DNA from: Vicugna vicugna
Taxonomy: Eukaryota
Assembly: GCA_013265495.1 (NCBI GenBank)
Contig: MU057560.1
Coordinates: 2,046,909 to 2,110,908, forward strand
Length of the DNA: 64,000 bases
Reading direction: 5' to 3'
A program made the translations under genes and the position numbers. Positions 8,459-14,400 of the stretch are shown here, in pieces. Every line of letters begins with the position of its first letter. The stretch's first letter is position 1. A model generated the notes under the pieces. The model had not been told where the DNA came from. It searched no databases and was given only the letters and a program-made list of their open reading frames with translations.

Positions 8459-11400
8459 CTGGAGAAGGGACACACAGCGTCGGGCGGGTGGCACGTATTA
8501 CGACTGTGGGCCCGGGCCCCAGGTACCACGACGCGGGGCACGGCACTGGGGGCGGCGCGGGTCCCGGACACCTCCCTGATGCCCTGTGAAGGTGCCGGTG
8601 CCGGCGGACCTGGGGAGGGCTGCAGGTGAGCCCACATCGCTCCATCTTACCACTGCATTTGTTGGTTCGATCCTTAGAATTTCTGTGAAGAATCTGTGGG
8701 CTTCGGCAAAGTTATTCTGACCGAGGTGAAGGAAAGCTCTGGAAATGAGTGACAGGTAAAGGATTAACCGGGAAAGTCAGGACGTGGGTGCGCCAGCAAC
8801 ACCGGCGGGGCAGCCCCCGGAACCACCCGCGGAGGGGCGGTGCTGTCCAGCCACAGCGGGGCACATTGTGTGACGTGGGCCGCAAGGTACCGCGGGCCTA
8901 ACTTTCATTAATCTAGACACGGTAACATCACCTAAATCACTTTCTGCTCTTTCCTACCCCTTCTGTTTTTTAAAGACAACCCAATTTTTATTTTATTTTT
9001 GTTTTTTGTTTTGTGGTTGGAGGTAATTAGGTTTATTTTTTTTTAATGCAGATACTGGGGATTGAACCTGGGACCTCGTGCACGCTAGGCAGGCACTGCA
9101 CCACTGAGCTACCCCTCCCCGCCTTCTGTCCTTACTGTGCTGGAGAGAGCATCATCCATGCAGGGAGCGCTGGGCTGATGAACGCAAACCCGCACAGGCC
9201 TTGCTTTATACGGCTTATTTTACTCATAAAAGCCAATCACAGACACAAGACATGGGAGTTACAATGGCAGTTGTACTAGAGGGAAAAACTTAACACAAAT
9301 TCAGGTTGAAATGGGGGCAATATAAAGAAGTACTATGAAAAATCAGGGGAAAAATTCTTAAAATCAGCTTTTACGACTAAAGGAATCCCACTGCAAGTCC
9401 AGGAAGCACACTTCTGGGTCCCCTGACTTGCTCAGCCTTGGCCTGGGGAGACCCAGCACTGCACGCAGAAGGCACCCTCTCCCCAGCAGGCTGTGCCGCA
9501 CGGTCAGAGTTTAAAACTTATGGGAAACTTGAGAAAATATTCAAGTAAAAAGTCATACTTGTTCATTAAAACCATTGTTTTACCTTGTAGTCCATCCAGT
9601 TTCAAATACAAAATACACATATGGAAACCTGCTGCCTTTCTGTACACTAACAGTGAACTACCAGAAGGCGTAATGAGCAGTCCCATTTACCATCACATCA
9701 AAGGAATGCAACACCTAGGGGTAACCACCCAAGAAGGAAAAAGACCCGGAAACTATATCATGTTGAGGAAACTGAGACTTCATACAAACAGACGGGAAGA
9801 TGCGCCACGTTCATGGACTGGAAGAACCAACATTGTTAAAATGGCTGTGCTGCCCAAGACAATACACAGACTGAGTGTAGTCCCTGTCAGAACACCAACG
9901 ACACTTCACCGAGCTAGAGCAAAAATTTTTACAATTTGTATGGCAACACAAAAGACCCTGAATAGCCAAAACAATTTTCAGAAAAAAGAACACAGCTGGA
10001 GGCCTCACATTTCCTGACTTCAGACTACTACAAAGGTACAGTCATCAAAACAGCATGGCACTGGCACAAACACAGACACGTGGATCAATGGAACAGAACA
10101 GAGAGCCCAGAAATTAACCCACATTTATTATGGTCAACTTATCTATGACAGAGGAGGCAAGAATACAATGGAGAAAAGACAGACTCTTCAATAAATGGTG
10201 TCAGGAAAACTGGACAACTACATGCAAAAGAATGAAACTGGACTATTCTCTCACACCATGCACAGAAATAAATTCAAGGCTTAAATATAAGACCTGAAAC
10301 CATAAAACTTCTGGAAGAAAACACAGGCAGTGCTCTTTGACATCAGTCTTAGTAATGTATTTTTGGATCTGTCTCCTCAGGCAAAGGAAACAAAAGCAAA
10401 AATAAACAACTGGGACTACAGCAAACTAAAAGGCTTTTGCACGGGGAAGGAAACCACCAACAAAACAAAAGGCGGCCTGCTGGATGGGAGAAGACATTTG
10501 CAAACAATCTATGTGATAAAGGATTAATATTCAAAGTACACAAAAAACTACTACAACTCAACATCAAAAAAACCAAGCAACCTGATTAAAAATGGGCAGA
10601 GGATCTGAATAGACATTTTTCCAAGGAAGACACACAGATGTCCCACAGGCACAGAAAAAGATGCTCAACATCACTGATCATCAGAATGCAGATCAAAACC
10701 ACAATGAGACACCACCTCACAGCTGTCAGAACGGCTGCCATCAGAAAGTCTACAAATGACAAGTCTCGAGGGTGTGGAGAAAAGGGAGCCCTCCCACACT
10801 GCTGGTGGGCATGTAATCTGGTGCAGCCACTATGGAAAACAGCATGAAGATTCCTCAAAAAACTAAAAACAGAACTACCGTAAGATTCAGCAATCCCCAC
10901 TGCTGGGTGTTTATCCAAAGAGAACAAAAACACTAATGAGAAAAGACACACGTGAACCTCCAGGCTCACGGCAGCACTACTTACAGCAGCCAAGACACGG
11001 AAGCAGCCTGAGTGGCCGTCGACAGGACTGGATGAGGAAGGTGCGAAACAGCAACAGGTACCGACACAGAGAGCAAACGGGCGGTTTCCAGAGGGGAGGG
11101 GCGGGGGGGGGCAGAGAAACGGGCAAGGGAGATGAAGGTACAAACTTCCCGTTACAGCGTACGTGGGCCACCGGGACGGGATGCAGTCAGTGACCAGGTG
11201 GTGTCCGCACGCTGACAGAGCAGGTCATGACTAGACTCGTGGTGGTGGTCAGTTTCAAAGCTATCGACAAACCAGAATCACTATGTTGTGTAACAGGAAC
11301 TAACACAGGACTGCAGGTCGGTTATACTTCAAAAGACAAACTCAGAACAAGAGACCAGATCTGAGGTTACCGTGGAGGAGCGGGGTGAGGGGGAACTGGG

Positions 11401-14400
11401 TGAAGGCGGTCAGAAGGTACAAACTTCCAGTTACAAGTAAGTAGGAGGGATGCAGTGCCCAACATGACAGATACAGGCAGTACAGTGTTTGAAACCTCAC
11501 ATGAAACTGGCTGGGAGTGAGTTCTGTTTAATTTTGTATCTGTAAGAGATGGATGCTCACTAAACCTGCCGTGATGCATGTGAATCAAATCATTACGCGG
11601 TACACCTTGCGCTTACTTAGCGCTCTAAGTCAATTACAGCGCAATGGAACTGGAAGGAAAGACAAAATGAAGAAAGAAAAATACATACCTGTTCATTAAA
11701 ACCATTATTTTACCCTGTAGTCCATCCAATTTCTGTGTCACTTTCTCTACGTCTTGAAAATACTTTTCAGCCGTTTTTATGTCTCCAATCTGCTGTGACA
11801 AAATCATGTCCTTAGTTCAGGTGACAACTTAAATCTCCATCCATGTATGTAATTCCCTAATATCATGCTAAGATGCTGGAACACAGTTATGAATCAGGCA
11901 GGTAGAACTTTGGTAACCATTTACTAATCGTTACTTAAAAAAAAAGCCATTGGGGTACCACGGGGTGTCAACACCCACATGTCAGAGGGTGAGCTGTCAC
12001 CACACCTGCCATGTTAACAAGCCTCAGTTTTTGATTTGTACCCTTTGAAAGGAATCCTGGCTTAGCGACACGTAAAATAAAAATAAAATGAATGACTAAA
12101 ATAATACATTTGTTTGATCTTTGGTATAATACGGCAGTCCCCTAGTCAATTTTGGGGGTTACCATCAAACCTGCAAATTCCAGTCATATTCTGACGCAGT
12201 AACACACAGTCTCATTGGACAAGCGAACAGATGACCCCACTCTTATCCCAACGTAAGGAAGCCCCCTCAGCGCCCCTTGTAAGATGAAGCCAGAGTCACG
12301 GGGGTCCGGACGGCCGCACCCCGCTGCGTGGCCATCACTGCAGAACCACAGCGGGGGGCGTGGTAAGGGGGAATCAGGTCTCCTCTGCCCTCAAACGCGT
12401 GAGGCAGGAAATCGATGATTTGAGGCTTATAGTGAGAAATGTAGGAAAAATTTAAATCCTGTTTAAACAAACAGCTTCCGGCGAGGGTGAGGGAAGAGGC
12501 AGGCCCTGTGTCCCCGGCCGGCCTAGGGAGCAGCCCTGAGCAGCGGGCCCCGGACGTCAGAACACGGCCACCACGCAGGGCCGTGCCCCCCGCACCCCTG
12601 CCGCCGCCCACCAGCCCCGTCCTTCCAGGGACGCCCGCCGGCCCGGAGGCTGAAGCCCCGCGCCCTGGAGCCGGGGGCAGGCGGGGGTCCGGGCTCCTCT
12701 CCCCGGGGCCCCGAGGGAACCGGGGCGGGTGACACACGTGGCCCGGCTGCCCGGCTGTGGCGGGGGAGGATCGGCCCCGCCCCGGGAGCCCGGGCGCTGC
12801 GCCAGGCTGCCCACGGCTTACAGGAGGGCAGGGTCGCGGCGCCACCCCGCAGACCCCGCGTCGGGGGGCGCGGGGAGGAGGCAGAACGGCGTTCTCCCGC
12901 GCGGCCGCCCACCCACGGGGCCGGCTCCGCGCCCGCCGCAGCCCCGACACCTGCGCTCCCGGCGGCGGGTGCACTTTAGCCCGGACCTCGGCCAGACCCG
13001 TTAAACGCTGGTGAGCGCACTGAGGGTCACCTGCTGCCGCTAAAGACGTGTCAAGCCCCCGTGTCTGCCGGGCGCGGAGCTGGGCGCTGCGCGCGGCTGC
13101 CGGCGCACAGCATCCTGTGACGTTCCGCTAGCCCCCCTTCACGCTCCAGTTAAAAGATGAGGCTCACAAAGGTGGGCAGTTTCTCAGGTCACACAGCTGA
13201 CCTGTAGCAGCGGGGGCTCAGAACCAGGTCCGTCCACCTCCCGGGCCACGGGCGGGCCCTCCGCACCCCGCAGCCTCACGGGGCTGGTACAGGACTTGCA
13301 CCGAAGCCATTTTCCAGTGGGAGATAATGGAGAAATCTTAGAATTTCCTTTGCCACCTACTGATTTGCCTGGTCATTGGAAAGTGAGCTTACATTTCCAT
13401 ATTTATTAAAATATAATTAGGGTTTAAAATCCTGATTTTCTAAGAGTTAGAGACAGCTTAAAAAATTAAACAATACAAACAGGCAATTAGAAGTAAAACA
13501 AAATATCTAGTAAGCAAATAAACAAGCCCAAAGTAGTTATTTAAAGAAAACAACAGACAGTAAGTGGATGGACTAACCAAGAAAAAGCATAAACACACAG
13601 AATCATAAATGTAAAAGGAGAAGCAACCACAGGTAGGAAGGAAACTGGAGTAATTATGAAAGAAGACCATTTTACAGAACTCTATGCAAATATATGTAAA
13701 CACACGGACCAAACAGGCGGTTTTCCAGGCCTCTAAATCACCGCCATCGGTCCCAGGAACAGGGAGAAGGCTCCCACGCACGGAACGCAGGCACCATTAG
13801 TCACAACCGTCCGACGAATCCCCGGGGTGTGCCTTAGACCCTTCTGAGGTGAATTATTCAAACCTTCAAGGAACAGATAATTCCAGAGTATCCCAAATAC
13901 CCCAGAGGACAGAGAAGGAAAGAAATCTGACCTCTTTTTATGAAGACAGAACAGATACCAAGTGCTTTTGCAAACAGCTCACACACACACAAACCCAGGC
14001 CAATTTCACTCAGAACCACAGCTGCAAAGATCTGGGGACACAGGCCCCCGGAGCAGGACCTACTGCAGGTGCACGGCCCTGAGTGTTTCTGGGGCAGAGA
14101 CTGGAACCGCTCCTGCACCCGCTCCCCCTCCCCCTCAGGGAGGGAGCGGAGGGGTCGGCCAGACCTGGCCAGACCTGGCCGGGGAGCAGGCGAGCTCTGT
14201 GTCCCTCCTGCGGTGACCTGCAGGGCATGGCTGCCTGGCCCGGGGCCCCTGTGTGGACACATCATGCTCCTGGCCACCGAGGAAAGACTCAGCTCCATCA
14301 ACTGTTCCTCTTTCCCGGGTTCTTCACCATGTCAGCCGCTCGGAAGCCACTGTGACGGTGGATGACCGTCTGAAACGAGCTCTGGACGGCACGGTCCCTA

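Follow-up and report, generated by a model that had tools for sequence, protein, structure and literature searches.

A truncated L1 beside TRAPPC12 exon 10 of a South American camelid, very likely inserted with a long target-site duplication that copied half of the exon

The window, i.e. the whole stretch of 64,000 nucleotides of Vicugna vicugna DNA analysed here, contains TRAPPC12 exons on the minus strand. Exons 9, 10 and 11, joined and translated, gave a 96-residue exact match within the alpaca TRAPPC12 protein P0124, and exon 10 is present in annotated camelid proteins. As judged from its sequence, the insert in intron 10 is a collinear, 5'-truncated L1 of 2.07 kb in antisense orientation to the gene. 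It is flanked by direct repeats (Table 1).

Table 1. Features of the TRAPPC12 exon 10 region and of the inserted L1 (positions in the window).
Feature	Position	Strand	Basis or remark
Original intron 10 continuation, behind the stranded copy	8739..9546	-	P0008 tail aligns 9435 to 9299; exon 11 starts at 8738
Endonuclease-like target GT|AAAAA	9545..9551	+	sequence; first nick on gene-sense strand at about intron +12, nick position inferred
Left repeat copy: stranded half-exon and decayed donor, 5' target-site duplication	9547..9603	+	51/57; secure core 9554-9603
Stranded donor CAA|GTATGA	9553..9561	-	6/9 against the same consensus as the functional donor; GT kept, -1 and +6 differ
Hypothetical cryptic exon, 99 nt, in-frame, stop-free	9559..9657	-	54 nt antisense L1 plus half-exon; one of five pyrimidine-preceded AG candidates
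5'-truncated L1 ORF2 remnant, collinear, frameshifted	9604..11046	+	begins at ORF2p residue ~730
First L1 3'-UTR unit, L1_Carn7-like end	11047..11333	+	similarity break ~11050; by-eye likeness to L1_Carn7 rows, PMC5453332 suppl. S3
Second 3'-end unit, L1MA9-like terminus	11334..11656	+	by-eye likeness to L1MA9_rc row; P0063 tail aligns 11655 to 11391
Decayed poly(A) tail running into the right copy	11654..11681	+	A in 20/28
Right repeat copy (original sequence): final 45 nt of exon 10 and intron +1..+12	11677..11733	+	encodes residues present in alpaca proteins
Functional donor CAG|GTATGT	11683..11691	-	8/9 against the donor consensus
TRAPPC12 exon 10 (101 nt), functional	11689..11789	-	AG/GT boundaries; tblastn exon map; translation of exons 9-10-11

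The left (9547-9603) and right (11677-11733) copies are identical at 51 of 57 positions and differ at 9552, 9553, 9559, 9577, 9585 and 9599. This identity had been part of the original prediction and stood on recounting; in 20 locally shuffled copies of 9001-12300 the best 57-nt match scored 31-36, at most 36. The secure core of the left copy comprises 50 nt with four mismatches (9554-9603). Beyond it the repeat ends are uncertain because the first five A's blend into the poly(A) tail and are then followed by two mismatches. The repeat thus measures 50-57 bp. As predicted, it combines the donor with the final 45 nt of exon 10. The left copy has four exonic differences, of which two are synonymous, one exchanges Ile and Thr and one is at donor position -1. 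A misassembly might be suspected as the window has a gap of 99 N at 15126-15224; yet the copies differ at six sites and records from other mammals match the surroundings of both junctions, which makes an artefact extremely improbable.

The repeats sit exactly where they had been placed, at the truncation point of the L1 and after its A-rich tail. L1 ORF2 homology starts at 9604, the next base after the left copy, in a codon aligned to residue 730 of human ORF2p, and the tail runs into 11677. Human ORF2p matched in order with residues 730-841, 878-911, 921-962, 985-1028 and 1071-1156, at nucleotide-minus-codon offsets of 7414, 7392, 7391, 7378 and 7377 (five of six pieces searched; the sixth was without match). 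Furthermore, 10554-11046 matches the L1 at 44531 on the DNA level. Before the first 3'-UTR unit (~11050) the C-terminal region of ORF2 is missing through an internal deletion. The likeness of the two 3'-end units to L1_Carn7 and L1MA9 was judged by eye against supplement rows of PMC5453332; the second unit resembles the first with 34% mismatch. A single collinear L1 had been proposed. This holds for the ORF2 part; the 3' part contains two tandem 3'-end units and the internal deletion. The double 3' end may be a trait of the L1 family. A second insert within the first tail would leave the outer target-site duplication (TSD) unchanged.

Very likely, one L1 was inserted antisense to TRAPPC12 through target-primed reverse transcription (TPRT) and generated a long TSD. 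This supports the original prediction, with its first nick some 12 nt inside the intron. The left copy starts at GT|AAAAAG, one mismatch from TT|AAAA, in what is old sequence; TT/AAAA is the preferred site of the L1 endonuclease according to the accessible text of PMC2912911. About 12 nt inside intron 10 the endonuclease would have made a nick in the gene-sense strand, which is T-rich, with priming on the poly(A). At a distance of 50-57 nt, some 45 nt within the exon, the opposite strand may have been cleaved, or else unwound and then filled in. The cDNA would have halted at ORF2 codon ~730 and been joined there, perhaps via a few bases of microhomology, and fill-in would have doubled the staggered stretch. 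The exon-attached copy would then be the untouched original, still splicing to exon 11, and the other copy a passenger half-exon with a decayed donor. We rejected a template switch onto an antisense host RNA, a less simple account given that the copy begins exactly at the nick. The prediction that L1 sequence now follows the functional donor and that the old intron start is stranded behind a half-exon is supported as well, at a distance of 2.13 kb.

The seven nucleotides after the left copy (9604-9610) equal 11679-11685, which fits a short TSD, too. Conceivably, a 57-bp tandem duplication came first, and the L1 later entered at the copy junction, where TTTC|AAAAA is a good endonuclease site, leaving a TSD of about 7 nt; short TSDs are enriched among 5'-truncated L1s in the sections of PMC2912911 available. 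We consider this sequence of events quite improbable. A single branch would have had to undergo two rare events, five of the seven nucleotides are already accounted for by the Gly-Tyr-Lys codons of the L1 itself, and an older duplication should be more diverged than the L1, not less. In addition, the tandem half-exon is absent from the three empty-site tails described below and from 198 proteins.

The state of the locus in other mammals was deduced from read-through peptides in four records, a peptide proxy for DNA. In P0008, and with less weight in P0120 and P0002, a single exon 10 continues directly into the intron past the left copy, so that the site is empty. The best match of the P0008 tail in the 64 kb, on both strands, was the left intron (35.3 bits; next match 25.1; maximum of 25 shuffles 28.0). 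Anchored at the donor, P0008 scored 48.0 on the left intron versus -0.6 on the L1 tail (z 10.2, 60 random GT anchors); the respective scores were 29.0 and -5.7 for P0120 and 26.5 and 3.0 for P0002. None of 40 shuffles reached the anchored empty-site scores of these three records. When gaps were penalised more heavily, positive scores persisted only for P0008 and for P0063, the fourth record. In an unanchored scan of the whole window P0002 ranked fourth, and the left-intron match of P0120 was outside its top six. P0008 and P0120 share substitutions and are possibly not independent. A second half-exon motif was found in none of the four read-through tails, though a 57-nt tandem copy would stay in frame. 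Among named proteins, L24P is found in Rhinolophus and Gulo, K20R in hyenas, and I28T in bats, mustelids, a rodent and ruminants. These changes thus recur, and a derivation of the ruminant Thr from the stranded copy was dropped for this reason.

P0063 gave a different picture. Its tail matched best with the L1 3' end (37.8 bits; next match 23.1; maximum of 25 shuffles 32.7), and when anchored it scored 56.1 there versus 9.5. The L1 3' end is located at intron +155 from the donor in P0063 versus +157 in the window. Orthologous markers are expected to share type, orientation, position, TSD and 5' truncation point in all carriers (PMC5453332); P0063 and the window L1 agree in type, orientation and position, and the tail reaches the 3' end only; the left junction is not seen in any record of another species. 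The insertion is thus probably not camelid-specific, as judged from the same L1 3' end in a non-camelid. Alternatively, the camelid insertion is younger than it appears and P0063 contains a similar L1 that entered the identical endonuclease hot spot independently. Identical sites do get reused: 3 of 15 NF1 sites were used twice (PMC3219598) and another case is at MET exon 14 (PMC12934576), as far as the accessible parts of both papers go, and a younger age would suit the repeat divergence of 10.5%. Nevertheless, independent insertions are highly improbable, given the same orientation, the same 3'-end type, offsets within 2-24 nt over 250 nt, and the heavy decay of L1, poly(A) and polyadenylation signal in the window. 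The outgroup check proposed with the original prediction, a single exon copy followed directly by a homologue of the sequence preceding 9547, is borne out by the empty-site records at the peptide level; some of the species suggested as outgroups may themselves carry the old, shared insertion.

The insertion is old and probably dates from the laurasiatherian or early artiodactyl radiation. The L1 branch length is 0.21 (95% interval 0.14-0.29), with 41 private changes in 215, and L1, poly(A) and polyadenylation signal are all heavily decayed. The repeat copies differ by 10.5%, versus about 19-21% for the age of the L1, i.e. 6 differences in 57 positions were observed where about 11-13 are expected at the L1 rate. 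For the left copy only, the excess likeness has P 0.03-0.05 before selection bias is considered, and P 0.23 at d=0.15, which is inside the interval; with the right copy's free sites included, P is 0.004 at d=0.2. It must be borne in mind that the repeat pair was noticed because it was well preserved. As an addition to the single-insertion origin, the stranded copy may have been homogenised by gene conversion from exon 10 or may be weakly selected as a cassette exon or splice decoy. The deficit of differences is in line with this, as is their distribution: three of the six lie within 8 nt, at donor -1 to +7 (P 0.03, post hoc), and three in the other 44 exonic nucleotides. Also, a 99-nt in-frame, stop-free cassette can be drawn. 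We nonetheless regard conversion or selection as unlikely because of the ascertainment and the P of 0.23 for the left copy alone at d=0.15, because the stranded donor is weakened, and because the duplication is in none of nine camelid proteins and in none of 198 overall.

The boldest version is that the long TSD made a new exon, with an L1-derived acceptor (AG before 9657) and the stranded donor, used at a low level and kept by selection. If true, the cassette would contribute 33 residues, roughly the size of a TPR unit, of which half would copy the TPR helix, and its use would explain why the left copy is better preserved than its L1. The chance that this is so appears very small. A half-exon carried twice was found in 0 of 198 TRAPPC12 proteins, 16 of which are without exon 10. 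Protein searches in the frame of the left copy yielded no homologue (no candidate of 33-105 residues; three candidates in another search, none of them scoring), which is weak evidence.

The original prediction further held that exon 10 had been rescued by the long TSD. This is unsupported on geometrical grounds. What adjoins the remainder of exon 10 is the original copy, intact at any TSD length, because a nick 12 nt into the intron keeps exon and donor whole whatever the length of the duplication. With an ordinary TSD of about 15 bp the donor would likewise have been copied. The extra length adds only a decayed decoy donor. The locus demonstrates neither a rescue mechanism nor a new function.

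In most respects the insert resembles 5'-truncated L1s generated by TPRT: it has an ORF2 remnant, a 3' UTR, poly(A), a T/A-rich nick site, flush direct repeats and possible 5' microhomology. Unlike a typical L1, its TSD measures 50-57 bp versus the usual 5-30 bp, the range given in the available text of Servant et al. (PMC5223499). L1 TSD lengths peak at 14-16 bp in a survey which took only TSDs of 5-30 bp (PMC2912911, parts accessible). TSDs of 40, 47 and 54 bp from L1s in cultured cells are tabulated in the accessible part of Servant et al., with Gilbert et al. (2002, 2005) cited there; the architecture is the same as here, and the authors point out that long TSDs could duplicate exons. Unlike the cultured-cell cases, the TRAPPC12 event is germline, has remained fixed over tens of millions of years and duplicates a portion of a genuine exon. 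An endonuclease site beside an exon boundary is also a feature of L1/Alu insertions in NF1 (PMC3219598) and MET exon 14 (PMC12934576). In the cases contained in the available text these caused exon skipping and had TSDs of 17 bp or less, whereas the TRAPPC12 insertion was tolerated and exon 10 is kept in camelid proteins. It shows that a gene can tolerate an antisense L1 lying 12 nt from a donor. By eye, the 3' ends are like those of the L1MA9 and L1_Carn7 laurasiatherian presence-absence markers (Doronina et al., PMC5453332), which are likewise old and present in some but absent from other mammalian records; unlike these, the insert spans 2.07 kb, ends in two 3'-end units and is flanked by a long TSD. 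The searched parts of the PMC5453332 supplements, which are gapped alignments, contained neither the exon-10 motifs nor the gene name, so this counts as weak evidence; the double-3'-end junction motifs did not occur there, either. A literature search with little coverage of subscription journals listed no paper on this TRAPPC12 locus. An alignment-based metagenome scan for mammalian host DNA gave 592 pattern matches, none of them confirmed, and scans of viral contigs found no L1 relatives.

Outcomes of this type are known, though rare, and the locus is an uncommon instance. It provides a germline, long-fixed L1 TSD of 50-57 bp, a length documented from cell culture and exceeding the 5-30 bp covered by at least one genome survey, as described in the accessible text of PMC2912911. 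TPRT alone can duplicate part of an exon together with its donor, as Servant et al. anticipated in the portion of PMC5223499 available. Finally, the insertion may serve as a presence/absence marker for laurasiatherian relationships.

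The two 57-mers lie where the original prediction had placed them and differ at 6 positions; the observation of a direct-repeat pair is confirmed. The pair is not a product of chance, since 20 local shuffles of the region gave at most 36 matching bases in any direct alignment of 57 nt. That the region is misassembled we consider very unlikely. The repeat comprises 50-57 bp, because its leading A's blend into the poly(A) tail and its final bases may overlap with L1 sequence. At the end of the left copy such an overlap may have arisen through microhomology: L1 peptides have KV[SA]G ahead of YKI.

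The host gene, on the minus strand, is TRAPPC12. Its exon 2 shares 99.8% protein identity with alpaca P0124 and 96.8% with P0074 of Camelus ferus, which places the window in a South American camelid. Eleven coding blocks were mapped from 51.3 to 8.2 kb, with a Camelus N-terminal extension located at 58.3 kb; hence the exon is numbered 10. P0124 holds an exact 96-residue match to the translated exons 9, 10 and 11. The right copy is the functional one. It is continuous with the remainder of exon 10, its residues are present in alpaca TRAPPC12 proteins and its donor CAG/GTATGT has 8 of 9 matches to the consensus, compared to 6 of 9 for CAA/GTATGA in the left copy. The left copy has four exonic differences, i.e. 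two synonymous ones, one Ile to Thr and one at donor -1. The L1 and one repeat copy account for 2,130 nt of intron 10. A putative functional cassette exon, stop-free and 99 nt long, can be drawn at 9657-9559; however, its acceptor is one among five candidates and protein support was absent, as the half-exon motif occurred twice in none of 198 TRAPPC12 proteins (16 of these lack exon 10 altogether). Elsewhere in the gene, intron 9 has a 99-N assembly gap (15126-15224), 31 nt away from the donor of exon 9, and the annotated alpaca isoform X3 (P0122) skips the 99-nt exon 9 (15255-15353) in frame. Self-comparison displayed degenerate tandem repeats at 21752-21941 and at 57777-58175, the latter directly downstream of the putative first exon.

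Coordinates of the exon 10 insertion and of related repeats in the window
Feature	Position	Strand	Basis or remark
TRAPPC12 exon 10	11789-11689	-	translation of exons 9, 10, 11
TRAPPC12 intron 10	11688-8739	-	2,950 nt, computed from exon boundaries
Left repeat copy	9547-9603		stranded half-exon and decayed donor
Focal L1	9604-11676		antisense in intron 10
First 3'-UTR unit of focal L1	11047-11333		ends like L1_Carn7 rows, PMC5453332 supplement S3, by eye
Second 3'-UTR unit of focal L1	11334-11656		ends like L1MA9 row, PMC5453332 supplement S3, by eye
Right repeat copy	11677-11733		last 45 nt of exon 10 and intron +1 to +12
Younger L1	44517-45540		5'-truncated
tRNA-like SINE	8990-9125	-	self-comparison
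tRNA-like SINE	28975-29117		self-comparison
tRNA-like SINE	33069-33169		self-comparison
tRNA-like SINE	37594-37735		self-comparison
tRNA-like SINE	55343-55436		self-comparison

As had been claimed, the inserted L1 abuts both copies. Homology to human ORF2p begins at 9604, the next base after the left copy, with residue 730, so that the 5' truncation point is flush with this copy; at the other end the decayed remains of a poly(A) tail (20 of 28 A) lead into the right copy. Four more L1 pieces match ORF2p 878-911, 921-962, 985-1028 and 1071-1156, in order, and a sixth had no match to human ORF2p. At the DNA level the focal L1 resembles the younger one at 44531 as far as about 11046, where the likeness breaks off; this suggests an internal deletion in the focal L1. 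After the break follow two related 3'-UTR units with 34% mismatch between them. These tandem units may be a trait of the family or may stem from another element that inserted into the tail of the first; their junction motifs were not found in the supplements of PMC5453332. The younger L1 has a plausible target-site duplication (TSD) of 14-15 bp with one mismatch and one indel, in line with the prediction. It is followed by a long A-rich stretch (45900-46750) which by eye resembles a much older LINE, in its 5' or ORF1 part. The five tRNA-like SINE copies, 72-80% alike in the pairs reported, are presumably a camelid SINE; the one at 9 kb sits in intron 10, on the far side of the stranded copy.

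Mammalian TRAPPC12 peptide records served as proxy outgroups. Among the best 120 of 313 matches listed at least four continue past the end of exon 10 into intron sequence (P0008, P0120, P0002 and P0063); P0024 and P0070, named isoforms with another continuation, were set aside. A frameshift-tolerant model for aligning peptide to DNA was used to score the intron-derived tails against the window. When both strands of the whole 64 kb were scanned without an anchor, the best match of the P0008 tail (35.3 bits; next 25.1) was to the intron on the left side of the stranded copy and that of the P0063 tail to the L1 3' end (37.8; next 23.1); the maxima over 25 shuffles were 28.0 and 32.7, respectively. 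The left-intron match ranked fourth for P0002 and was outside the top six of P0120. Anchored at the donor, the scores for left intron and L1 tail were 48.0 and -0.6 (P0008), 29.0 and -5.7 (P0120), 26.5 and 3.0 (P0002), and 9.5 and 56.1 (P0063). Sixty random GT anchors yielded maxima of 13-19, and in 40 shuffles none of the four best anchored scores was attained. With stiffer gap costs positive scores remain only for P0008 and P0063. A second half-exon motif was absent from all four tails, even though a tandem copy of 57 nt would preserve the reading frame. From the tail scores and the absence of this motif we infer that the empty site has one repeat copy and that P0063 carries the L1. At the peptide level P0008 thus firmly, and P0120 and P0002 more weakly, bear out the expectation that L1-free outgroups have a single 57-mer running into sequence homologous to that below 9547. 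Logan ORFs which read through an exon into an intron (P0001-P0127, P0278-P0348) are usable as peptide-level outgroups for intronic insertions where a genome is lacking.

A tandem duplication might have come first, with the L1 inserting later at the junction between the copies. The identity of 9604-9610 with 11679-11685 would agree with this order; yet two events are needed, and a tandem state was seen neither in the four tails nor in the 198 proteins, which leaves it improbable. The proposal of a long TSD is upheld by the single copy at the empty site and by the L1 ends abutting both repeats; very probably, the repeat pair is the TSD of this L1 insertion.

In the TSD model the second cut is downstream of the first (PMC2666801). 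Here, the first nick would fall on the plus strand at GT/AAAAA, about intron +12, and the second cut about 45 nt inside exon 10; unwinding and fill-in would yield the same, indistinguishable product. The exon-side copy would be original DNA after any TSD-forming insertion, hence exon 10, its donor and 12 intron bases would survive whether 10 or 57 bp are duplicated. With a TSD of ordinary length, about 15 bp, the donor would likewise have been copied. The notion that the long TSD rescued exon 10 is therefore not sustained. Its length would contribute half an exon whose donor, 2.13 kb downstream, competes with the original one and has weakened since. Three of the six repeat differences fall at donor -1 to +7 (P 0.03, post hoc).

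When the focal L1 is compared three ways with two further L1 copies of the window, its branch is 0.21 (95% 0.14-0.29; 41 private changes in 215 columns) and that of the younger L1 is 0.11. Against the majority residue of L1 fragments, 41 of 95 columns differ, frameshifted stretches included, in line with 0.2-0.25. Between the two repeat copies the divergence is 0.105, whereas the neutral copy should have gathered about 11-13 changes (P 0.03-0.05, lower with the free sites of the right copy added); at a divergence of 0.15, P is 0.23. Because the pair was noticed for its good preservation this is only a mild tension; gene conversion or selection could explain it, and so can chance. At 10700-11045, 12 A>G and 10 T>C changes dominate the 41 private ones, a pattern that GC-biased gene conversion would produce where the sequence is GC-rich, as it is here.

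P0063 fits best at a divergence of about 0.3-0.35 from the window, and its exon peptide differs from alpaca at 3 positions; accordingly, it is not a camelid. A parallel L1 insertion in its lineage is conceivable since insertion hot spots are reused (PMC3219598 and PMC12934576), though quite improbable, and if true would alter only the date of the event. L1MA9 and L1_Carn7 elements serve as laurasiatherian markers (PMC5453332). The TSD of 50-57 bp compares with typical TSDs of 5-30 bp in PMC5223499, where events above 100 bp stay at or below 10% in HeLa and inserts with TSDs of 40, 47 and 54 bp are tabulated from NER-deficient cells. A genome survey took only TSDs of 5-30 bp and urged the study of longer ones (PMC2912911). 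Our literature search found no paper on this TRAPPC12 locus. The insertion belongs to a known kind, uncommon in the length of its TSD and in the copying of a half-exon, and on present evidence it predates the camelids.
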